Below are positions 2,645 to 59,917 of a stretch of DNA of 64,000 bases, in pieces. The DNA lies in the IMG/VR virus record IMGVR_UViG_3300026484_000105, positions 45,993 to 109,992 of that record, one strand, 5' to 3'. Source of the DNA: a virus. A model generated the notes under the pieces. That model saw only the letters and a list, made by a program, of their open reading frames with translations. It searched no databases and was not told the DNA's origin. Made by a program: the position numbers and the translations under genes. How positions within the stretch are numbered: position 1 is the stretch's first letter; each line of letters opens with the position of its first letter.

Positions 2645-5600
2645 ATGGCTGCAGTTGATGATATAGATTTAGACGATATGGACTTTGAAGATGACGATAT
2701 GGATTTCGGCTTCGATGATCCATTTTCAGAACCACCACCTCCCAAGGATACGAGGGAAGCAGTAAGTAGAACTATAAATAAAGTAGGAAGTAGTTTTATG
2801 GATGACTTTACTGACGATAAGGCTGAAACAGCTGCTGCATTCGTTAAAGAAAGTATTCCAAGTAAGATAAGTGTAGAAGCAAATAATATAATTAATGTTG
2901 GAGAATCATTTAAGAAAGATATCTTAAAGTCTAGTTCGGAAGTAGCAGAGGCTACTAAACCAATGTTAAAAGCTATTGAAGGGTTGGTTCCTAAGGGTGG
3001 TAAGATAGAAACCCTAGTTAATCTAGCTAAAGAAAAACTAGGTATGAACGATGAGCATCGTACTAGTGAAGATGTTGCTGCTGATGCTGCTGCGATGGCT
3101 ACTAGTTCAGTAGTTAACGTTTTAGGAGAGATGCAAGATAGAGATACTATAAGAGAAACTATAACAGCATCTATAGCCGACAAGAAGACACAATCTCAAT
3201 TAGATCTAAGTGCTATTCAGGCAGGACACCTAGAAGCGATAAGTAATTTTAATATAGATGTAACTAATAGTTTTTACAGGAAATCATTAGAATTACAATA
3301 TAGACATTTATTTACAACAACAGAACAACTAGATGTTACTAAACAGGGTTTCGAAACCTTTAAAAATCAATTAGAATCAATCGTTGCTAACAGCGCATTA
3401 CCAGATTTAGTTAAAACAAGAAATTCAGAATTTATGAAACACCGCTTATTAGAAAGAGCTGGTGAGAGTTTATTTGCCAGAACAGGTGTCTTTGATAATA
3501 TAAAGAAAAGACTATCCAATGAAGTACAGGGTGTAACATCCGTATTAACTAGCGGTATTACTAGTCTTGGTGATGCTGCTGACATGGTTAAAAGTACTAG
3601 TGAGATGTCTGCTATGGCTGGCGGTACTGAAGGGATGGTCGGAGGATTACTTGCTGGTGGAGTAAGAGGACTAGTAGGTACTAAAGTAGGTGACATATTA
3701 GGTAAGACTAAGGTTGGTAAAAAAGGTATAGAACTAGTAAGAAATTTTAATCTAGATCCTTCCGAAGCACTTAAAGATATGGCTGATAATAGACCAGATG
3801 GTGTATTTAAAAACATATTAGAAACTCTTGGTGATTTTACTGAAAATAAAGATGCTGAAGCATCATATTCCATTAATAAAGTAGATCGAGATAATGTCTC
3901 AGTATTTGATGGTAGAGCACATACTTCTTTAACTAAGATCATACCTGGACTTTTATCTAAAATCCTAAAAGAAGTTAGTAGTTCAAGAACTGGTAAAGAA
4001 GAAGATGAGTTACGATATGATTATGATACTGGTACTTTTAAAACTACTAGCAGCTTAAAAAATGAAATAACTGAGAAGATTCAAAATGACCTTGTCAGTA
4101 GTGGCGTTAACAGAAACGTTGAAGGTATCATTACAACTATCGTTGAAGAAACTAATCTTAACGTAGACGATGATGAGATAGCTGAAATAAAACAAGCACT
4201 CCTAAGTTATGTTATTAAAGGTAAAAGACTACTAGTTAACAAACTTGAAGAAGATGGTCTCTACGACGAATTAGATCCTAAGTTATCTAAAAAATTTAAA
4301 AAAGCTATAACTGATTTTACAGAAACTAAAGATGATGATCTAAATTATAAAAGAGTTAGGCACCTAAATAATGAATTAGGATATATAAAGGATAGAGCTC
4401 CGTCACCTCAAGAACTACTTAATAAGTATTCTGATGCAGGTAGTATTGATCTTCTAAAAGATGCAGGTATAGTAGAACTTGATAGTGTTACAGGTGAATA
4501 CAAATTAGATAACGCTAGTTATAAGACACATATGACTACTGCTATTAAAACAGCTAAAGATAAAGATCAAGAAGAGGAAGAAGAACCTAAGACGATAGCT
4601 GAGAAATTAGCTGAAAAATATATCAAAAAGAAAAAGAAAGATGTAGATTCTATAACTCAAGAAGAGGAAGAAGAAGCTCCTATAAATAAAGGTTTTATAA
4701 ATAGAGCTAAAGGTAAAGTCTCTTCATTTGGTGGTACGATAGAACAGGACATCATCAATACTATAGATGGTAAGCACGATATAGGTGGTAAAGCTAAGCG
4801 GTTTGCTAAAGAGGCTAACAAATATGTTACAGGTAAAGAGGATCTATCTGGTTACAAATTTAGCACTGAATCTAATCTAAAAAACAATTTAGCACCACAG
4901 ACTAAACGCCGATCATTATTGGGTGATTTCAAAACAGTTAAAACAGAATTATCTGAAATACATTCTGTAGATGACGCTTTAAATAAAGCCAGAAATATAG
5001 ATAATTTCAAAGATACTGAAAGTAAAATAAAAGCTATAAATGATTTAGTGTCTTCTAGTAAAGATCCAAAGGACTTTATAGAAAAAATAAAAGAAACTGA
5101 TGATTATAAAAAATTATCTACAGATATAAAAAATCATATAGATAAACTAGAAAGTAAAGTGCCTACCGTAAAAACAGAAGCAAAGAAATTTGTAGAAGAT
5201 AGGGTAAGCGATTTAAAGGATAATTCGCATTATAAAAATATAGTAGAATCTGATATAGTAAAAGATTCTAAAGCTAAAGCTAAAACCTTAGTAAAAACAG
5301 TAAAAGATAGTAAGATAGTTTCCGATATAAAAGATTCTGAACTTGCTAATAAAGTCACAACTGATATTACTCTATTAAAAGATAGAGTATCCAAACTTAC
5401 GGAACTAACTGATCTTAATAACATAGTTACAGAATTATGGACTAAGGCATCTGAACATTATGATTATCTGGAAACTTTGGAAGATACAAAAAGTAATAGG
5501 GCTAAGAAAAAGGAACTCTATAGATATATAAGATTTTTAGAGAATATAAGATTAGATAAGCTTGATCCTAAAGATGCTAAGTTAAAGGTATCTAAAGCTA

Positions 5601-8600
5601 CTGTTAAATTAGGTAAAATACTTCTAACCAAAACAGCAGAAACATTTACAGAAACATCTAAAGATAAAGTAAGTAAAATTATAACTTCTAGTAAAGACAA
5701 GATAGAAGAAATAAAAGATATAGATGTTAGTAAGGTAAAAGACATTAAGGTATCTGATGCTACGCAGTATGCTATGGATACTGTAGTGACTGCTAAGGTA
5801 AAAAGTAAGCAGTTAAAAGATGACTTTAAGAAAACTGAACTATATAAATCAGCAGAAGATAAATATAAAACAGTAGAAAGTTCCATTAGTAGTAAAATAG
5901 ATAAGACTATAACCGTTACTAAAAAAGCAGAAATATTATCAGAAGTGGATAATGTACTACTTGATAATATAATAAAAGTACAGAAGTCTAATGTAGATGA
6001 GGTACTTAAAAAAGAGAGAATAAGCAAACTAAACGAGTCTAGACAAAAAATAAAAGCAGCTGATGTAAGTAAACTAAGACCAAAAGATTTAACTAGACTA
6101 GTTAGTGATAGTCTAAGTCCTTTAAAAGACATAATTACAGCAGATATAAAAACAAAAGCTTTGGATGCAAAAGATAATATATCAAGCAAAAAAGACGAGT
6201 TTATAAGTAAAGTACAGGATAAGGTACCTGCATTAAAAACTACTGGTAACTTTTCAGAACAATTAACTACAGCTAAAACATATACTTTAGATAAAGTAGA
6301 TACCGTAAAAGATACTACAACTAATATATTGCCTGCAATACCCAATCCTAATTCATTTAGTATAAATGATATTAAGTTAAAAATAGTAGGCTTCTTAGAT
6401 AAATCTTTTAAAGAGTTGGAGAAAGTAGAAGACTATTTAAATAAGAATCCAGATGAGGCTAAAGATAATTCTGACAAAGTAAATAAGATTAGAAAGAATT
6501 TAGCTACATTAAGAAATACAAATCCAGAAGATAAAGAAACTGTATCTACTCTTACAAAAACAATTAAAGAGGATATAGAATCACTAGTAGATAAGATTCT
6601 ACCATCTGAAAAACTTAGTAAGACATATAGTGCTGAAGATATAGAAAAAGAAAGAGCTAAAGATAGAGCTAAAGAGAAAGAAAGTACCGAGAACAGTCTT
6701 TTAGATATAATTAATTCTGATGATCCGTTAGGTACTCTTAAGAATAAGCTTAAAAGGGCTGCAACCAGTAGGATAAAATCCACTGCTACAGGTGCAGTTA
6801 AAGCAGCATTTAATTTTATTAAGAGAGATGCTGAAAGAGGTAAAAGACTAAGAAGTTATCTTAAAAAGAAATTATTCAATAAGAAGAAAACAGGTCCAGG
6901 GATACTCCATAGATCCTTAAATAAAGTACTCAATGCGACAGGCAAGGTAATCACAACTGTAGGTACCACTGGAGCAAATGTCGTAAAAGCGGATATCGAT
7001 AATGGTGAGAAACTAAGGGATAAATTAAAGAATCTATTTAATAAAAAGAGGAATACAGAAACTATAAAGGAAGATGTTCCTGCAAATAGAATAGATTATA
7101 AAGAAGAAAAGAAAAATGGTCCTGGTATAGTTGGGTCAGCAAATAAAGTAAATTCTGCTTTTGATAGGGACGGGTCTGGTCATAGAGATGGGTCATGGTT
7201 GGACAGACTTAAGAAAAAGAAAGATGTGCTTAAAAATAAGAATAAAACATTTTTAGCTAAAGCAAAAGATAGTAGTTTTAGTTGGTTGCCTATATTATTA
7301 GGAGCTTTTAGTTTTATTAAGCCGTTATTGAGTAAGTTGGTATCTGGAATAAAGAATCTTGGTAGTTTTATTGTTAAGGGTATTGGTAAGGCATTTAAGT
7401 CAGTTGGTAGTTTTCTATTAAATGGTATAAAAGGTATATTCGGTAGTCTTGGTAAAATGTTGGCTGGTCCATTGAATGCAGTAAAAGATGTAGCCTCTAA
7501 GGGTCTAGATAAAACTAAAGAATTAGCCAGTAAAGCAGCCGACAAAGTTAAGGGTATAGGTGCTGCTGTATATAATAAAGCTAAAACCTTCGGAAGTAAA
7601 GTAATTAATGGTATGAAGAATACCAAGGGTGGTAAACTTATTGCTAATGGTATTAAAACTACCAAAGATGCTATAACAAGTGTTGGCAGTAAAGCTATAA
7701 GTACTTTGGAAAATAGTAGAGTTGGAAAAGCTACTACTAAACTTGTTGGTAAAGCAGTAGAAAAGGTTCCCACTAAAAGCATCCTTAATTTATTGAAATC
7801 GTTTAAGTCTACAATATTTAAAAAGCTAGGTAAACGAGCAGGTAGTAAAGTTGCTGCTAAATTGGCTGCGAAAACTGCGGCTAGAGTCATTCCTTTTGCA
7901 GGTACTGCATTGTTGGCATATGATGCGGCTAAGATAGGTTATGATATGTTCCATAATGGTACTAGTCTTAAGAGTGCTATTTCTAAACAGATACTTGGTT
8001 TTGATTTATTTGGAGATGAGGCAGCTAAAGATGAAGATGGCAATCTTATTAAACCAGATGAAAAGGGTGTGACGAAGTCTAGTACTGGCGATCACATTGA
8101 TACAGAAAGAAAAGAGAGCAATAAGGAAACAGCTAAGGTTAAAGATGGGGATTCCATTAAACCAAATGAAAAGAGGGTAAAGAGATCCATTGTAAAAAGA
8201 CCTCCTGTAAAGAGATCCAGTACCGATGACTACATTGATGCTGAAAGAAGAGAGGACGATAAGGAAGCTGCTAGAATTGAAAGGGAATTAGTGAATAAGA
8301 AATTTACTGTAAAATCTAGAGATGTTATTGTAGATAAGTATGGTTCTACTATAAGAACGAGATCCAAAAAAGAGTTAATCGCAAATCCAGATGTCGATTC
8401 TAAAGGGGCAAATGGCATTAATAAAGTAGGTGGATCACCTGTTAAGATGGGAGGAATTAAAAACAAAGTTCTACCAATGACCCCTATTAATAATGAAAAA
8501 TTCAAACCTGTTTCAAAATACGATATTCTTAATTCGTTAGCTATTATACAAAAACAAATAGAAGTAGATAGGGGAAAACTCAAAAAGAGAGTAAACACAA

Positions 8601-10120
8601 ATGGCAAGATGGGAATGCTTAATGCGTCATCTTGGGTATTAGGTAGCATTATAGACGAGGTTAGCAATATACCAGACGGTCCTAACTTTACAATTAAGCT
8701 TAATGAGTTAGATAAGGATATGATTGATGTTGCGTCTTCTACCTTGGCTAGATATCCTAAAATAGATCTTAAAGCCATATTTAAGACAGGTAGAGTACAA
8801 AAGCTACCTAAACCAATTATAGAGAAAGAAGAAGTAAAAGAAAAAACTAGCGTATTTGATAAAGGATTAAATCTTTTAAATAAGGCTAAGAATAAAATAA
8901 CTTCATTCTTTGGTTTCAATTCAGATAAGAAGAAAGAAGCAACAAAAGATATTATATCTAATAATAAAAATAAGAAAGTAGGGACTGTAGCTAAAATAGA
9001 TAAGTTACCAGTTAATACAGGTGATTTAGTTAGTGACCTTAAAAGGGATGAGGGCGTAGTTCTACATACATATAAAGATAGTCTAGGTTTAAAAACCATA
9101 GGTACTGGTCACTTAGTAGATAAAAAAGGTGGTATTCCTTTACGTAAGATAATTGGTGAAGACAAAGATAAAATATCTATGGAGGAAAATGATTATATTT
9201 TACAATATGATATAGGTCAAGTTAGTAAAGATTTATATTCTAGGTTACCATGGCTTAAAGATAAGCCAGATAATGTACAGAAGTCATTAGTTAATATGGC
9301 CTTTAATCTTGGCGTTGACGGGTTACTTAAATTTAAAAATACTTTAAAAAGTATAAAGAATGATGAGTACACGAATGCTTCTAGAGGAATGCTTAATAGT
9401 AAATGGGCTAGACAAGTTGGTAACAGAGCTACTAGATTAGCTAGTATAGTTGCGTCTACAGAGTATGATTCTAACAGTACATCTAAGACTGAGAATAAAA
9501 CAGATAGTTCAGTTGCAAGTAAACCATCTATGAAATTAGCATCCAAAGTAAAAGATGTTGTGAGTCCTAGTAATAATGTTACTTATAATAAAGCTGGAAC
9601 AACTACCGTAAGATTTAATGGTAAAGATTTAAAATTAACTAAACAGCAAGCATCTGTTTTAAGTAATTTTAAGGCAAACGGTAAAACACAGGATGCTCTT
9701 AGTCTATTATCAAATATATCTAATGGACATAAAACAGATAGTCTAGTTAGTGTAGATAAAGATACTAATAAACAAAGAATATCTAAGACGTTAGCTATGA
9801 ATAGTGATACTAATAAGGTAATGTCTGTTGAAAGCAATAAAACACTTAGTGCTGTTGCAGAACATGGTGCAATACAAACAGATGAACTAAAAGCACTTAA
9901 TACCACAATGAAGACATCTCTTGAAATACAAAAAGAGACACTTAATGTAATTAGAGAGATGGTTGGTCATACTGGTAAGATAGTTGAACATAATAAAGAT
10001 AGTACTGCAGAGGGTGGTAGTGGTCAGAAAGAACACGAGCATCCAAATAAAGCAGTGCCAGCAATAGAAAAAGAAGTACCACAACCAGGTATCTTTTTAG
10101 AGAAAAGAAAATACGCATAA
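2645..10120 (+). CDS. Tail-associated lysin / tape-measure-like protein (phiKZ gp181-like) with a T4-lysozyme-like (GH24) domain near the C-terminus
   Basis: 2491 aa, long helical K/A/G-rich regions, conserved YRKSLELQYRH and NSALPDLVK block; DLKRDEGVVLHTYKDSLGLKTIGTGHL...NSKWARQVGNRATRL at ~9030-9450; RBS AAGGAG. Confidence 0.85.
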   Translation: MAAVDDIDLDDMDFEDDDMDFGFDDPFSEPPPPKDTREAVSRTINKVGSSFMDDFTDDKAETAAAFVKESIPSKISVEANNIINVGESFKKDILKSSSEVAEATKPMLKAIEGLVPKGGKIETLVNLAKEKLGMNDEHRTSEDVAADAAAMATSSVVNVLGEMQDRDTIRETITASIADKKTQSQLDLSAIQAGHLEAISNFNIDVTNSFYRKSLELQYRHLFTTTEQLDVTKQGFETFKNQLESIVANSALPDLVKTRNSEFMKHRLLERAGESLFARTGVFDNIKKRLSNEVQGVTSVLTSGITSLGDAADMVKSTSEMSAMAGGTEGMVGGLLAGGVRGLVGTKVGDILGKTKVGKKGIELVRNFNLDPSEALKDMADNRPDGVFKNILETLGDFTENKDAEASYSINKVDRDNVSVFDGRAHTSLTKIIPGLLSKILKEVSSSRTGKEEDELRYDYDTGTFKTTSSLKNEITEKIQNDLVSSGVNRNVEGIITTIVEETNLNVDDDEIAEIKQALLSYVIKGKRLLVNKLEEDGLYDELDPKLSKKFKKAITDFTETKDDDLNYKRVRHLNNELGYIKDRAPSPQELLNKYSDAGSIDLLKDAGIVELDSVTGEYKLDNASYKTHMTTAIKTAKDKDQEEEEEPKTIAEKLAEKYIKKKKKDVDSITQEEEEEAPINKGFINRAKGKVSSFGGTIEQDIINTIDGKHDIGGKAKRFAKEANKYVTGKEDLSGYKFSTESNLKNNLAPQTKRRSLLGDFKTVKTELSEIHSVDDALNKARNIDNFKDTESKIKAINDLVSSSKDPKDFIEKIKETDDYKKLSTDIKNHIDKLESKVPTVKTEAKKFVEDRVSDLKDNSHYKNIVESDIVKDSKAKAKTLVKTVKDSKIVSDIKDSELANKVTTDITLLKDRVSKLTELTDLNNIVTELWTKASEHYDYLETLEDTKSNRAKKKELYRYIRFLENIRLDKLDPKDAKLKVSKATVKLGKILLTKTAETFTETSKDKVSKIITSSKDKIEEIKDIDVSKVKDIKVSDATQYAMDTVVTAKVKSKQLKDDFKKTELYKSAEDKYKTVESSISSKIDKTITVTKKAEILSEVDNVLLDNIIKVQKSNVDEVLKKERISKLNESRQKIKAADVSKLRPKDLTRLVSDSLSPLKDIITADIKTKALDAKDNISSKKDEFISKVQDKVPALKTTGNFSEQLTTAKTYTLDKVDTVKDTTTNILPAIPNPNSFSINDIKLKIVGFLDKSFKELEKVEDYLNKNPDEAKDNSDKVNKIRKNLATLRNTNPEDKETVSTLTKTIKEDIESLVDKILPSEKLSKTYSAEDIEKERAKDRAKEKESTENSLLDIINSDDPLGTLKNKLKRAATSRIKSTATGAVKAAFNFIKRDAERGKRLRSYLKKKLFNKKKTGPGILHRSLNKVLNATGKVITTVGTTGANVVKADIDNGEKLRDKLKNLFNKKRNTETIKEDVPANRIDYKEEKKNGPGIVGSANKVNSAFDRDGSGHRDGSWLDRLKKKKDVLKNKNKTFLAKAKDSSFSWLPILLGAFSFIKPLLSKLVSGIKNLGSFIVKGIGKAFKSVGSFLLNGIKGIFGSLGKMLAGPLNAVKDVASKGLDKTKELASKAADKVKGIGAAVYNKAKTFGSKVINGMKNTKGGKLIANGIKTTKDAITSVGSKAISTLENSRVGKATTKLVGKAVEKVPTKSILNLLKSFKSTIFKKLGKRAGSKVAAKLAAKTAARVIPFAGTALLAYDAAKIGYDMFHNGTSLKSAISKQILGFDLFGDEAAKDEDGNLIKPDEKGVTKSSTGDHIDTERKESNKETAKVKDGDSIKPNEKRVKRSIVKRPPVKRSSTDDYIDAERREDDKEAARIERELVNKKFTVKSRDVIVDKYGSTIRTRSKKELIANPDVDSKGANGINKVGGSPVKMGGIKNKVLPMTPINNEKFKPVSKYDILNSLAIIQKQIEVDRGKLKKRVNTNGKMGMLNASSWVLGSIIDEVSNIPDGPNFTIKLNELDKDMIDVASSTLARYPKIDLKAIFKTGRVQKLPKPIIEKEEVKEKTSVFDKGLNLLNKAKNKITSFFGFNSDKKKEATKDIISNNKNKKVGTVAKIDKLPVNTGDLVSDLKRDEGVVLHTYKDSLGLKTIGTGHLVDKKGGIPLRKIIGEDKDKISMEENDYILQYDIGQVSKDLYSRLPWLKDKPDNVQKSLVNMAFNLGVDGLLKFKNTLKSIKNDEYTNASRGMLNSKWARQVGNRATRLASIVASTEYDSNSTSKTENKTDSSVASKPSMKLASKVKDVVSPSNNVTYNKAGTTTVRFNGKDLKLTKQQASVLSNFKANGKTQDALSLLSNISNGHKTDSLVSVDKDTNKQRISKTLAMNSDTNKVMSVESNKTLSAVAEHGAIQTDELKALNTTMKTSLEIQKETLNVIREMVGHTGKIVEHNKDSTAEGGSGQKEHEHPNKAVPAIEKEVPQPGIFLEKRKYA

Positions 10121-16501: not shown

Positions 16502-16552
16502 AATTACTCCTTGTGTTAGAGGTACCTCTTGGATACTTAACAAAATTATGTC

Positions 16553-16572
16553 TTGATACTACCATGTATCTA
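16553..16572 (-). promoter_or_regulatory. Conserved 5'-leader hairpin motif, copy 1
   Basis: TAGATACATGGTAGTATCAA (GATAC/GTATC stem), also at 26904 and 40280. Confidence 0.75.
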
Positions 16573-16574
16573 TC

Positions 16575-16593
16575 AATATAATATATAATTGAA
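16575..16593 (-). promoter_or_regulatory. Early-type phage promoter
   Basis: TTCAATTATATATTATATT, member of a motif family recurring ten times upstream of minus-strand cassettes. Confidence 0.6.
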
Positions 16594-26903: not shown

Positions 26904-26946
26904 TTGATACTACCAAGTATCTACTACAATAATATACGGTTGAAAA
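26904..26946 (-). promoter_or_regulatory. Early promoter plus conserved leader hairpin, copy 2
   Basis: TTTTCAACCGTATATTATT then TAGATACTTGGTAGTATCAA; about 50 bp nearly identical to 40280-40322. Confidence 0.8.
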
Positions 26947-40279: not shown

Positions 40280-40322
40280 TTGATACTACCATGTATCTAC
40301 TATAATAATATACGATTGAAAA
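40280..40322 (-). promoter_or_regulatory. Early promoter plus conserved leader hairpin, copy 3
   Basis: TTTTCAATCGTATATTATT then TAGATACATGGTAGTATCAA. Confidence 0.8.
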
Positions 40323-53000: not shown

Positions 53001-53046
53001 ATAATGTAGATACTGCGTGTACCTACATTAATAATATATGTATAAC
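53001..53046 (-). promoter_or_regulatory. Early-type promoter with 5' leader hairpin
   Basis: CATATATTATT core followed by TAATGTAGGTAC-ACGCA-GTATCTACATTA. Confidence 0.6.
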
Positions 53047-56065: not shown

Positions 56066-57310
56066 TTATATAAATGATATTATTGTTTTAAGTATGGTTG
56101 CAACCATACCAACTCCGTTAGCAATATTCTTAGATCTTTCTCCTTTTAATCTTCTTTTATGTAACTCAGCATTACGTCGTTGTTCCATTATTGAATCTAT
56201 ATAGTCCAACCTACCTTTTAATATAGTTTGTTTATAACTAACATATTTCATATCCTTATCTATTTCAGCTATCTCTAACGCTGTTTTATATTTAAGCTCT
56301 TCCAATCTGAATGCATGCATACGTTTAAATTCTTCATTATTTAATTGTGTTTCAGATAACTTTACTTTATTTTCTTCTATAATAACTTTACTTGTAGCTA
56401 TATTTAATTTGGTGTCCTCCATTTGTAGTTTTATATCACCATTATATTTAGCTGCAGATTCATTATCATATATGCCTAACATATCTAATTCATCTATAGT
56501 ATAACTGGTACGATCACTTAGAACCTCCCCATCCTTCTTCAGAATCACTTTTACCCCACTTGGTTTAGTTTTACTCGGGGTAGAAATTAAACGTTGTATA
56601 GAGCTTCCTATAGGCATATAATAAGCTTTATATGGATTATCATTATCTACTATATCTATAGATATAGTAGTTGGATGCTCATCATTAAGTATGTTCTTTC
56701 TTTTTATAGTTTCTATATTTAAATCAGACTTAGGATGCTTTATTATATTAGTAGGAACCCCTTTTGTAATAATTAGGTCATTATTAGGAATATATAGATA
56801 TTTATAGTAATCCAATTCTTTCTTTGGTACGTATGTAATTATCCTTATCACAATGTTATTACTTTCTGTACAATTATGTATCTTACTTTCTATCTCACTA
56901 ACTGTTAAACTAGATAAATCTGATAACGTTCTATAATAATCTACGAGCCCCACTGTATCTACAGCAGTAACATCATAGATAGAATACCTTTCTACTATAT
57001 AGATACCTGCACCATGATTATCATCTACGTCTTCTTTAGATAAATAGTTAAGACCAAAAGATGTAACATCATTATACTGCCTTATTGGTAGAACTATATT
57101 CCTATTATCTACAGTATATACATTATTACCCATAGTACTAAAAACATGTCTGGTATAATCTGGTCTTGCATAGTGTTTATTTTTAGCTATGTTATCATCT
57201 ATATATCCATTATTTAATTTCTTTACTTTGAATATTGCATCTGAATATTGTTCTTCTGGCGCTTCAAAAACTCTGTTAGTATCTGAAACTGGTGTTAGTG
57301 GTACATTCAT
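56066..57310 (-). CDS. Hypothetical protein with a C-terminal coiled coil and amphipathic tail
   Basis: 414 aa, AAGGAG RBS. Confidence 0.65.
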   Translation of the reverse strand: MNVPLTPVSDTNRVFEAPEEQYSDAIFKVKKLNNGYIDDNIAKNKHYARPDYTRHVFSTMGNNVYTVDNRNIVLPIRQYNDVTSFGLNYLSKEDVDDNHGAGIYIVERYSIYDVTAVDTVGLVDYYRTLSDLSSLTVSEIESKIHNCTESNNIVIRIITYVPKKELDYYKYLYIPNNDLIITKGVPTNIIKHPKSDLNIETIKRKNILNDEHPTTISIDIVDNDNPYKAYYMPIGSSIQRLISTPSKTKPSGVKVILKKDGEVLSDRTSYTIDELDMLGIYDNESAAKYNGDIKLQMEDTKLNIATSKVIIEENKVKLSETQLNNEEFKRMHAFRLEELKYKTALEIAEIDKDMKYVSYKQTILKGRLDYIDSIMEQRRNAELHKRRLKGERSKNIANGVGMVATILKTIISFI

Positions 57311-57377: not shown

Positions 57378-57385
57378 ATTACATT

Positions 57386-57400
57386 AATAATATATGCTTA
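57386..57400 (-). promoter_or_regulatory. Early-type promoter core
   Basis: TAAGCATATATTATT, followed by AATGTA as in the 53030 copy. Confidence 0.55.
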
Positions 57401-57490
57401 TAATAAATTAAAGAACAAAAAACATTTAATGCTAGCAGGTAGTGTCTCACTAATATTAAAGTTGCATGCGTTTATTTCCACGGTAATTTG

Positions 57491-57592
57491 AAAAAGAAAA
57501 AAGAATAGAGGATCGCTACGTTATTTTGCTAACGTATGTCCCCTATTTATGGTAGTATCCTATGTATGCATAGATAATCTATCTATGTCATA
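57491..57592 (-). ncRNA. Candidate ~100-nt small regulatory RNA
   Basis: Promoter motif at 57595-57614, 5' hairpin CATAGATA-GAT-TATCTATG, unpaired linker, terminator stem AUAGGGGA...UACGUUA/UAACGUA...UCCUCUAU plus U-tract; no ORF. Confidence 0.6.
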
Positions 57593-57594
57593 TA

Positions 57595-57614
57595 AATAAT
57601 ATATATGTAGAAAA
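57595..57614 (-). promoter_or_regulatory. Early-type promoter driving the candidate sRNA
   Basis: TTTTCTACATATATATTATT. Confidence 0.55.
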
Positions 57615-57666: not shown

Positions 57667-57700
57667 GTAACATGACATGGCTAAGACCATGTCATGTTAC
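57667..57700 (-). terminator. Hairpin downstream of the major capsid gene
   Basis: GTAACATGACATGG-CTAAGA-CCATGTCATGTTAC. Confidence 0.7.
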
Positions 57701-57748
57701 TGTATCTAAGTGCATTGGGTATTTACTTATCGCTTTTGAAACTACCTA

Positions 57749-59917
57749 CTAAACTGTTTTAATGTTTTTAGTAATTTTACCTAACGAATCTTCAATTCCA
57801 GAGATGTTAACTACTGACATGATCGGTAGTTGTGGTACATGTAAGAATCTTGGTAATGTAGAAAGTTCTCTAACAATATTACCACCTCTATTTGCAACAA
57901 CATCTAGTGAAACTTCTGGAGACCAGAAACATACACCAAACCCAAGTGGGTTAACTTTTTCATTTTTAGTAGAACCAGTATCACCAAATGTAATAAACAT
58001 TTTACCAGCAACTAATGGATTCATTGTAGTAGCAATATGAACATCAAACTCTGAACCAAGATCAACTTTACCAGAACCATTTGTAAGATATTGTGCAGTT
58101 CTGCTATCTGTACCTATAAGTACTGAAGTTTTACCAGCAGTTCCACCATTAAGAACTTTACTTGCAACAGCATAATTAGAATCAGTAAACATTTTAATAA
58201 CTTCATCTTTGATTTTACCAACAAGCGTACCTTTGATATCTTCCATTTTCTCACCAGATCTAACTGAATCAACATTGTTAGCAACATTTAAGTTAGTTTC
58301 ATTGTAGTATGCATCTACAAAGAATCTTGATACACCAAGGATTGCAGCATCTTTAACATTTCCATTTGCAGTAATTTGTCTTAATGTTTCAGAGAACATT
58401 ACAAGAGCGTTTACGGCTTCAAGAGACATTTTAATACCTGTGAATGCAATTTGAGAAGCAAGGTATGTAGCGTCATTATCAGTATCATTAGAGTTACCAA
58501 TAGTTTTAAGAATTGTAACACCTGATCTAACTGGAACAGTATAGATTTGGTTATGAATATCAACACCAACTAATTGACCTCTTTGTCTAATATTAGAGTT
58601 AGTTGTGTAAGCTTCAACAGAGTAAGCTCTTGGTTTACAAGTTTCAATAACTGCAGCAATTGCTTTGTAGTTTTCATCATCTTCTTCAAGAATGTTTCCA
58701 CCAGCATCTAAGATCTCTACTAATCTAACTGAAGATGCATATAGAGCGATATCACCAATATGTGTATTACCATCACCATGTAGTACTAGCTCTACTCTAA
58801 CAGTATAGTTTTGTGCAAGTTGTGCTAAGATAGCTGAACCAGCTCCATCCCATTTTTTAGTAGCAGCAGTATTTAAAATCATTGCATCTGTTGTAAATGC
58901 CATTGAGATATCTTTGTTATGATCTTGTGTGCTATGTGTAAAGTTTGAATGTGGTAACATTGCAATGTTGAATTTGAAAGTTTCAGTAATTTCTTTATCA
59001 TCAGCATCTTTACCAGTAAGATCAAAGAATACATCTTTAACTTGCACTCTTCTATCAAGAGCATCAGTATTATCCATAACACCTTTAGCAAGTTGTGCAT
59101 CAGTTTGCGAAACACCTAATAGAGAAATAGCTTTACCCATTTTCAATGGAGCAGTTGTAATCTTCTCACCTTTTTCAGCATTAACAGATTTAAGATCAGC
59201 AGCAAGTACACCTTCAGCTTCTTTTCTAAGAACAGGAACAAGTAGGTTTTTATCTACAGATAAAATACTTGGATCATGGATTGCTTTAACGATTGATTTT
59301 TTGTTAAATTTACCTTTATCAGATGCGCCAGAAGTGCTTCTTGTAACTTCATCATAAAGATTGATAACTCTAGCTTCAATAGATGCACCAGAAGTTGTTG
59401 GATCGATTGTAACTGTTGGGAAGAATAGTTCACCAAATGCATCTTGTTTAGAAGCAAGTAAATTATATATAACAGAGAAATAAACTGCAGAGTTTAAAGT
59501 TTGACCATCAAAAGATTCCATAGAGATATTATCCATATCCACCATATCTTCAAGACCAAGAGCATCACCATCAACTGTACCAACTACATTTTGCGCAGTA
59601 ACAGGTTTTAAAGAACCTAGGTTTTCTCTAGCAGCAGTAGGGTCCATTGCAAGACCAGCAACAAGTTGAGCAGCCTTAAGTTGTGCAGCAGTTACCTGAC
59701 CAGCATCCATACCTTCAGTAGAGATAACCGTATCAATAGTATTTTTCACTATCTCATTAAGAGATTCTAAAGAAGCGTTTGCAGTTTGTGCAGTAGCAAC
59801 ATCCATTGATTCAGAAGAGATTACAACCTGTGCAATTTCTGGTCTGTTTGTAAGTCCATGTACTGTAAGACCTGATTTTATTCCATCTACTAGTGTAGCA
59901 ATTTGATTTTTATCCAT
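57749..59917 (-). CDS. Major capsid protein (phiKZ gp120-like)
   Basis: 722 aa; propeptide with S-x-E sites (ISSE, ASLE, ISTE, ISME|SFD); YNLLASKQDAFGELFFPT, NSNIRQRG, IGTD, PRFLHV..LP motifs; strong codon bias; close to the DnaB-like gene. Confidence 0.9.
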   Translation of the reverse strand: MDKNQIATLVDGIKSGLTVHGLTNRPEIAQVVISSESMDVATAQTANASLESLNEIVKNTIDTVISTEGMDAGQVTAAQLKAAQLVAGLAMDPTAARENLGSLKPVTAQNVVGTVDGDALGLEDMVDMDNISMESFDGQTLNSAVYFSVIYNLLASKQDAFGELFFPTVTIDPTTSGASIEARVINLYDEVTRSTSGASDKGKFNKKSIVKAIHDPSILSVDKNLLVPVLRKEAEGVLAADLKSVNAEKGEKITTAPLKMGKAISLLGVSQTDAQLAKGVMDNTDALDRRVQVKDVFFDLTGKDADDKEITETFKFNIAMLPHSNFTHSTQDHNKDISMAFTTDAMILNTAATKKWDGAGSAILAQLAQNYTVRVELVLHGDGNTHIGDIALYASSVRLVEILDAGGNILEEDDENYKAIAAVIETCKPRAYSVEAYTTNSNIRQRGQLVGVDIHNQIYTVPVRSGVTILKTIGNSNDTDNDATYLASQIAFTGIKMSLEAVNALVMFSETLRQITANGNVKDAAILGVSRFFVDAYYNETNLNVANNVDSVRSGEKMEDIKGTLVGKIKDEVIKMFTDSNYAVASKVLNGGTAGKTSVLIGTDSRTAQYLTNGSGKVDLGSEFDVHIATTMNPLVAGKMFITFGDTGSTKNEKVNPLGFGVCFWSPEVSLDVVANRGGNIVRELSTLPRFLHVPQLPIMSVVNISGIEDSLGKITKNIKTV

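Follow-up and report, generated by a model that had tools for sequence, protein, structure and literature searches.

In phages P1 and P7, the c4 antisense RNA arises by processing from the operon under its control; it targets a single mRNA where ribosomes bind and has its role in the immunity of temperate phages. According to a published account that cites Citron and Schuster (1990), c4 acts in trans, through short complementarity, on an mRNA of the phage that encodes it, and matched changes in the RNA and its target set related phages apart (PMC12197685). Here, we describe a candidate small RNA (sRNA) on the minus strand of a 64-kb window, that is, the whole stretch of viral DNA that was analyzed, which is part of the 110-kb contig of virus record IMGVR_UViG_3300026484_000105 (31% GC). 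Contig-wide coordinates are labeled "contig", and all others follow the numbering of the window; the phage is known from metagenomes alone. The candidate carries a short seed that is complementary to a hairpin predicted to open several early mRNAs, and seed and hairpin differ by a matched change in a related phage (IMGVR_UViG_3300026484_000087, a 206-kb IMG/VR contig with an 86% identical capsid protein, hereafter the relative). With moderate confidence, we read the unit as a phage-encoded, trans-acting anti-leader sRNA of ~99 nucleotides (nt) that would act by base pairing.

Among the described systems, c4 is the closest functional analogue, and the likeness lies in a specificity that differs between related phages through matched changes. 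The present unit has its own promoter instead of being processed from an operon, and it would address many targets in what is apparently a lytic jumbo phage. Its target lies at the extreme 5′ end of the mRNA, ~20 nt before the Shine-Dalgarno sequence, and ends ~23 nt upstream of the AUG rather than covering the ribosome-binding site. Seed-type sRNAs, such as RybB, GcvB, and RepG of Helicobacter, combine a hairpin, a single-stranded seed, and a terminator with a U-tail, and their short seed recognizes a motif in many mRNAs. In contrast to the loose site near the ribosome-binding site addressed by these sRNAs, the shared target here is a promoter-linked 5′-terminal hairpin that occurs in near-verbatim repeats. 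Stabilizing 5′-terminal hairpins are found in the leaders of E. coli ompA and of B. subtilis aprE and ermC, where the stem-loop lies 1–3 nt from the 5′ end. Unlike in those leaders, one hairpin subfamily here has a conserved loop matching an sRNA, and its stabilizing role is only putative. The RegB protein of T4 cuts GGAG in the Shine-Dalgarno region and inactivates a class of the phage's own early mRNAs. This endoribonuclease (for background, see PMC9409239) offers a functional analogy only, as we propose an RNA for the effector and a 5′ hairpin for its motif.

Further points of comparison come from phage genomics. The sRNAs of the jumbo phages 201phi2-1 and phiKZ are short terminated transcripts, some of them conserved in position, and the sections of the source that present them name no established target (PMC11512511); the same applies to the corresponding sections on the 10 novel RNAs of phiR1-37 (PMC12197685). 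In phiKZ, differential RNA sequencing (dRNA-seq) yielded one predicted sRNA, which was not confirmed by northern blot (PMC8244752). Compared with these RNAs, the present candidate stands out by a signal of covariation and by a predicted class of many target mRNAs. In T4-type phages, PeSL cassettes (PMC2839356, PMC4122927) are described as composite promoter–terminator motifs (PMC4122927). As in PeSL, a near-identical early promoter and stem-loop precede unrelated genes, and the gene content differs between close relatives. Unlike in PeSL, the hairpin is located past the start site, is not followed by a U-tract, and would belong to the mRNA.

Anatomy of the unit and of the matching leaders

The unit spans 57603–57491 on the minus strand. 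It begins with the promoter core TATATTAT (57596–57603), which is present in the extended form TATATTATTTATAT followed by G. This G (57589), 6 nt past the core, is the predicted transcription start by analogy with the rule for AR9, phiKZ, and phiR1-37. A 5′-terminal hairpin comes next in the fold (57568–57589; 8–9 base pairs (bp), loop GAU, stem CAUAGAUA/UAUCUAUG), followed by an unpaired linker (57548–57567) and a terminator-like element (57491–57547), which consists of an interrupted hairpin (57547–57504) and a U-tract (57503–57491; six U, C, five U, with the last base at 57491). No open reading frame (ORF) of at least 25 amino acids (aa) overlapped 57491–57589. Thus, an ORF-less minus-strand unit of ~100 nt with an early promoter, a 5′ hairpin, and a terminator with U-tract, as proposed by the first-pass annotation, was borne out by the sequence, the ORF list, and the fold, and the marks of an independent unit (own promoter, own terminator, no ORF) were all found in silico.

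Folding of the 99-nt RNA (57589–57491) placed the 5′ hairpin at nt 1–22, the linker at nt 23–42, and the terminator hairpin at nt 43–86. The minimum free energy (MFE) was −24.8 kcal/mol with z = −4.59, and none of 200 shuffled sequences folded as well. The linker is 20 nt long, purine-poor, and the sole long unpaired stretch of the window's RNA. It contains the seed GAUACUACCAU (57549–57559), identified by the fold and the motif search, which consists of GAUACUACC plus AU and is followed, after 4 nt, by the terminator stem. In both the MFE and the centroid structures, the seed was unpaired, with an opening energy of 1.2 kcal/mol; the sequestration that had been named as a possible refutation was not seen in these folding models. 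Owing to the interruption in its stem, the sRNA terminator escaped a simple terminator scan. Rfam gave no matches over the entire window, and a permissive threshold applied to the sRNA loci of both phages likewise gave none above the gathering cut-off; the best sub-threshold score was that of RsaF (22 bits vs. a threshold of 60).

The proposed targets are leaders that begin with a 17-nt hairpin from the predicted +2 position, 5′-A-GAUAC-NN(N)-GGYA-GUAUC. The seed is the complement of the leader loop (GGUA) and the 3′ arm (GUAUC). The motif search confirmed the earlier claim that the linker at 57559–57549 is the exact reverse complement of this loop plus 3′ arm. Allowing at most one mismatch, a search with ATGGTAGTATC returned exact minus-strand matches at 16555–16565 and 40282–40292 and a 10/11 match at 26906–26916, while its complement occurred on the minus strand only at 57549–57559. 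The eight matches obtained in total compare with 1.78 expected, and none of 100 shuffles reached eight. A partial match inside a coding region, flagged beforehand as a caveat, is real and lies at 544–554.

Within the window, three leaders are each located 5 nt past TATATTAT and upstream of a Shine-Dalgarno sequence and an ATG, all on the minus strand. Leader 1 (16555–16571; 5′-A-GAUAC-AUGGUA-GUAUC; TATATTAT at 16578–16585) has 11 nt complementary to the seed, and its hairpin begins at nt 2 with a folding energy of −4.6 kcal/mol. Leader 2 (26906–26922), with the loop UUGGUA, has 10 complementary nt, and leader 3 (40282–40298) has 11. The first gene of leader 3 encodes 353 aa and is a 75% identical orthologue of a gene with a GGCA-type leader in the relative. 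The 11, 10, and 11 pairs counted by the first-pass annotation held; as measured here, the hairpin is 17 nt long and begins at +2 of the early transcripts at 16571, 26922, and 40298. A variant leader, AGGUACACGCAGUAUC (53009–53024, minus strand), keeps the hairpin through a G-U pair and would place C opposite A of the window's seed. Beyond the window, two further canonical leaders were found at contig positions 5544 and 44897, so that the seed is a perfect 9–11 nt complement of all five canonical leaders in the contig. TAGATAC alone was also considered as a leader marker and was dismissed, being frequent by chance.

Leader-bearing genes mostly have untranslated regions of 38–42 nt, and the leader hairpin therefore ends ~23 nt before the AUG. 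Some leaders are longer (70–77 nt; 16505–16545 in the window, and L023, L025, and L020 in the relative) and contain a second conserved element, GUUAAGUAUCC...GGUACCUCUAACA. This element sits between the 5′ hairpin and the Shine-Dalgarno sequence, and 7 nt of it (AGUAUCC) are complementary to the sRNA linker (GGAUACU).

In a genome of 31% GC, TATATTAT by itself is about as frequent as chance would have it, and it is therefore only in its extended form that the motif is informative. The extended motif TATATWAT-WWA-NN-T-R was distributed 11:1 between the gene strand and the other strand in the contig and 30:2 in the relative, with expectations for both strands summed of 1.65 and 6.05, respectively. 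In core and spacing, the sRNA promoter equals the early promoter of AR9, AAATATATATTAT-(6N)-G+1, which was mapped by experiment, and the 6-nt rule is also stated for phiKZ and phiR1-37 (PMC5312081). The TATATTAT box, the purine start 6 nt downstream, and the RNA polymerase beta-type fragments of the relative (see below) are the marks of promoters for AR9/phiKZ-type virion RNA polymerases. Applying the AR9 start rule, the leader hairpin is predicted to begin at nt 2 of the mRNA, which supports the earlier placement of this hairpin at the 5′ end of the predicted transcripts. A hairpin within the first 3 nt was present in 67–68% of the predicted early transcripts compared with 20–21% of control windows, and in these models a 5′-end hairpin looks like a general design rule of the phage's early RNAs. 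Over the whole contig and the relative, the 5′-end hairpins of early transcripts are unrelated in sequence (e.g., those at 57380, 30278, and 12031 in the window).

Seed, leader, and predicted pairing in two phages

In the relative, the capsid gene is followed by a terminator, a conserved promoter block, a 5′ hairpin, a terminator with U-tract, and the promoter of the homologue of the window's 414-aa gene. A 20-nt block in the promoter region, TATATTATTTAYATGACATA, is kept, and its flanks have diverged; the promoter block and the first six transcribed nt are the best-conserved part of the intergenic region. The 5′ hairpin of the relative (7 bp) occupies the same place, and its 3′ arm and loop differ from those of the window. 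The relative's RNA is longer (~214 nt, z = −4.76), with ~120 extra nt between the 5′ hairpin and the seed. These extra nt (L001 6322–6452), which have no counterpart in the window's RNA, contain two strong hairpins as well as an ORF of 21 codons that lacks a Shine-Dalgarno sequence. An apparent second GACATAGATA start in the relative was dismissed, as it is located inside a gene. MAFFT global alignment misplaced the relative's seed; local alignment identified its true homologue as the 57559–57491 module. The seed-plus-terminator modules of the two phages are homologous, with a local alignment score of 34.5 against 18.8 +/- 3.3 for shuffles, none of 300 being as good. In both phages, the seed is separated from the terminator stem by 4–5 nt, and both sRNAs have an A-rich spacer and a U-tail.

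The relative has 16 promoter-linked leaders, corresponding to about half of its predicted early promoters, and its seed reads GAUACUGCC. Thirteen of the leaders are GGCAGUAUC, two are GGUAGUAU(C/U), and one is GACAGUAUU; the two GGUAGUAU(C/U) leaders could pair with the seed G through G-U only. In the window's contig, 5/5 canonical leaders are GGUAGUAUC and the seed has A. The change is thus compensatory, with A>G on the seed side and U>C on the leader side, and each seed is perfectly complementary to the majority leader of its own phage (5/5 and 13/16). If the window's seed were set on the relative's leaders, C would stand opposite A in 13 of the 16. The U/C difference is seen directly in the leaders of an orthologous gene pair (75% identical), and another pair keeps U in both phages. 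Covariation of seed and leader in related genomes had been named as a check by the first-pass annotation, and its outcome was positive. A metagenome scan added L030, a near-copy of the relative, in which the seed is kept amid ~8 other changes in the RNA, which are too few to be informative.

The core 9-mer appeared in shuffled sRNAs with frequencies of 3.6e-4 (window) and 2.0e-4 (relative), and any 9-mer complementary to the 19-nt leader with frequencies of ~5e-3 and 4e-3, respectively. Under a neutral-descent model, the probability of eight kept positions together with a single compensating change was 2.7e-3. Apart from the copy in the sRNA, all anti-leader 9-mers of the transcribed strand fall within genes, as in-frame Asp-Thr-Thr or Asp-Thr-Ala codons.

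Variation in the leader stems bears on the level at which the motif is read. The variants GGUAC (six leaders) and GUAUU (two leaders) keep the pairing through G-U, with no pair broken, which favors an RNA structure over a DNA site. Cofold binding free energies, which include the cost of unfolding both partners, averaged −9.3 and −9.9 kcal/mol for the motif leaders of the two phages and −4.3 and −4.8 kcal/mol for the other TATATWAT-anchored windows. RNAduplex on whole RNAs was uninformative, being swamped by long loops and by pairing between the U-tail and the A-tract, and cofold was used instead. One leader of the relative (contig position 80732, minus strand) keeps the GAUAC/GUAUC stem around a 4-nt loop, AACU, in place of NNGGYA. 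It would escape the sRNA, and stem and loop are seemingly under separate constraints.

Two of the leader-bearing first genes in the relative encode RNA polymerase beta/beta' fragments (L021:706-2199 and L018:5679-7706; phrog_2987, E = 6.5e-120, and phrog_3015, E = 2.2e-139, plus Pfam RNA_pol_Rpb1_2). By analogy with phiKZ and AR9, these fit subunits of the non-virion polymerase as early genes. The other first-gene matches in the relative are conserved phiKZ-type families without assigned function. The previous estimate of up to about 18 accessory genes under this control is roughly right for the three cassettes of the window by ORF count, and too narrow for the class, which is larger and includes RNA polymerase genes in the relative. 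The first genes behind the promoter-plus-leader cassettes are mostly non-orthologous between the two phages, which indicates that the module has been shuffled.

On these grounds, the following course may be proposed. Transcription of the sRNA would start at an early promoter of its own, located in the gap that separates the major capsid gene from the early gene that follows. Pairing would nucleate on the conserved loop GGYA, invade the 3′ arm, and release the 5′ arm, so that the hairpin-protected 5′ end would turn into a single-stranded 5′ tail of 6–8 nt beside an intermolecular duplex of 9–11 bp, which would span roughly −34 to −23 with respect to the AUG. The likeliest outcome would be a co-ordinate down-tuning of the early-mRNA class as the stable, doubly hairpin-protected sRNA accumulates, by faster 5′-end-dependent decay and/or poorer ribosome loading. 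The expectation of down-tuning follows from what 5′-terminal stabilizer hairpins generally do. The earlier sRNA interpretation is partly supported by these results, while synthesis of the sRNA, its pairing in vivo, and the direction of its effect, including the proposed unzipping and destabilization of the leader, are what we infer from the arrangement.

Genomic setting and comparison set

The unit lies in a 438-nt gap between the capsid gene and the next ORF. The capsid gene is a 722-aa ORF (57749–59917, minus strand) that matches the phiKZ-type major head protein (phrog_3231, E = 1e-127); among deposited phages, the closest capsid match in a protein search was 34% identical, in Burkholderia phage FLC9. 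Its terminator hairpin (57667–57700, minus strand) is located upstream of the sRNA promoter and was flagged by the simple terminator scan. Directly before this hairpin, the block AATGCAYTTAGATACA (57701–57716, minus strand) is kept in the relative (L001 6208–6223). It includes TAGATAC, as at leader starts, and its 8-mer TGCAYTTA is not enriched elsewhere; as a late-promoter motif, TGCAYTTA was rejected for its chance-level occurrence. On the other side of the gap, a 414-aa ORF (56066–57310) has its own early promoter (57380–57394, minus strand; TATATTAT at 57387–57394, predicted start at 57380), and its predicted transcript opens with a perfect 19-bp hairpin unrelated in sequence to the leader hairpin. 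Between the sRNA terminator and this promoter (57405–57490, minus strand), a degenerate seed-like GACACUACC (57446–57438) is followed by a weak T-run. The MAFFT global alignment suggested a second seed at this degenerate site, GACACTACC (57446–57438), which was rejected because the local alignment was not significant (17/300 shuffles were as good).

The capsid search of IMG/VR returned a single relative, the GTDB genome scan found none, and blastn of the sRNA locus against GenBank phages gave no match. In the metagenome scan, L029 was too short to reach the sRNA region. L031 and L032 (capsid 50% identical) have TATATTAT promoters and different leaders, and no evident anti-leader sequence was found in them. 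In L031, an HNH/NUMOD-like homing endonuclease ORF, assigned by eye, directly follows the capsid gene (8340–9100), at the position of the window's sRNA. Capsid proteins P0004–P0012 are 65–75% identical and mark intermediate relatives; their contigs come from Logan, ENA, and NCBI and reach 55 kb in length. The 24 nt TATATTATTTATATGACATAGATA, covering the sRNA promoter and start, also occur in L044–L054 (e.g., IMGVR_UViG_3300032167_000004, position 243827). These sequences were rejected as relatives, as they belong to an unrelated AT-rich phage of 264 kb with neither capsid synteny nor the leader family, and the 24-nt identity is probably a chance match. In this 264-kb phage, present in many metagenomes, the match is followed by a stretch with few ORFs in which GAAATCCT and GCATCC motifs recur.

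Alternative explanations and biological meaning

Several observations weigh against an anti-leader sRNA. The comparison covers two lineages (three sequences), and judging from the sequences, the case rests on a single compensating substitution. Given 62% identity across the homologous module that contains the seed, conservation of the seed (8/9) is weak by itself, and the 13 GGCA leaders do not represent 13 independent events, since recombination among promoter cassettes may have made the leaders uniform. The 11-nt match was noticed after the fact, by a reader seeking oddities. The relative's seed is less open than that of the window (opening energy 3.0 kcal/mol, unpaired in the centroid), as its A-rich flank is available for pairing with the U-tail. 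Neither Hfq nor RNase III was found in the examined parts of the two phage records, which are 41% (window's) and 77% (relative's) complete. The duplex would leave the ribosome-binding site uncovered, and a single sRNA gene would face 5–16 strongly promoted targets of the same promoter class, which raises questions of stoichiometry and timing.

The post hoc notice of the complementarity and the insignificance of seed conservation in such a module also speak for a different explanation, in which the unit is a real short transcript or a promoter–terminator module, and the complementarity to the leaders is functionless, arising from chance and shared descent. The unit could then be a leader whose transcription ends prematurely, a module insulating the capsid gene from the early gene that follows, or an sRNA directed at another (host) target. 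Short promoter-proximal terminated RNAs are common in jumbo phages; in the pertinent part of one report, 201phi2-1 has 11 sRNAs, eight of which arise through premature termination (PMC11512511). Coding DNA, too, yields these 9-mers by chance, with roughly one per 100 kb. We consider this explanation unlikely, though the most probable of the alternatives: the sole substitution in the seed exactly compensates for the majority change in the leaders (p about 0.003), and the only non-coding anti-leader 9-mer is the one at the sRNA, in its one long unpaired stretch.

A DNA-level role was raised by the first-pass annotation as an orientation-independent operator. GATAC-N6-GTATC at +2 to +17 could be the operator of a dimeric phage repressor or part of a PeSL-like recombination cassette, with the copy at the sRNA locus being an inverted partial site for the same protein that changes with the specificity of that protein. 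Indeed, the leader forms an inverted repeat whose distance from the promoter is constant, in a classic operator position, and the promoter and leader precede mostly non-orthologous genes, which recalls the mobile promoter/stem-loop cassettes of two sources (PMC2839356, PMC4122927). Covariation alone leaves this possible, because a double-stranded site reads alike in either orientation. Three features weaken it. While the leaders have GATAC-N5/6-GTATC, the sRNA locus has one half-site plus spacer (9–11 bp), and the second half-site is absent. The copy is located 30 nt (window) or 152 nt (relative) into the unit, yet always 4–5 nt before the terminator, and its position thus follows RNA features and not a promoter. 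Moreover, the variation is not symmetric: the leader variants GGTAC...GTATC and GATAC...GTATT break the DNA symmetry and keep the RNA pairing through G-U, and the conserved part of the spacer, GGYA, is itself asymmetric. Both versions of the DNA-level role are therefore rated as improbable.

It is somewhat less probable still that nothing functional is transcribed, and that the region is only a spacer past the end of the capsid gene, in which a second terminator is present and TATATTAT occurs fortuitously. The frequency of TATATTAT in this AT-rich genome would allow it, but the conservation peak over the promoter block and the first six transcribed nt, the retention of the 5′ hairpin with a changed sequence, the fold z-scores of −4.6 and −4.8, and the terminator that the capsid gene already possesses all argue otherwise. 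That the RNA is a sponge acting on a CsrA/RsmA-type protein through GGA motifs, as also suggested earlier, is very improbable: the two GGA reported for the window's RNA are there, one of them within the open linker, but two in 99 nt compare with ~1 expected, the relative has one in 214 nt (~2 expected) and none in its seed region, no GGA lies in a hairpin loop, and the motif is thus neither enriched nor conserved.

Returning to the anti-leader sRNA, its wider implication is put forward more tentatively than the sRNA itself. Possibly, a common 5′-terminal hairpin serves as a tag on about half of the early mRNAs made by the virion polymerase, among them mRNAs for subunits of the second RNA polymerase of the phage, and a single anti-leader sRNA retunes or shuts off the whole class, as an RNA-based temporal switch in which seed and tag co-evolve between related phages. 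If the reading is true, an sRNA matched to a tag on many early mRNAs would be a concrete post-transcriptional mechanism for turning down early expression in jumbo phages, which run their own transcription program. The natural variants, in which a seed with A goes with U in the leader and a seed with G goes with C, are a ready compensatory pair, and the 17-nt tag with its anti-tag may constitute a small orthogonal control module.

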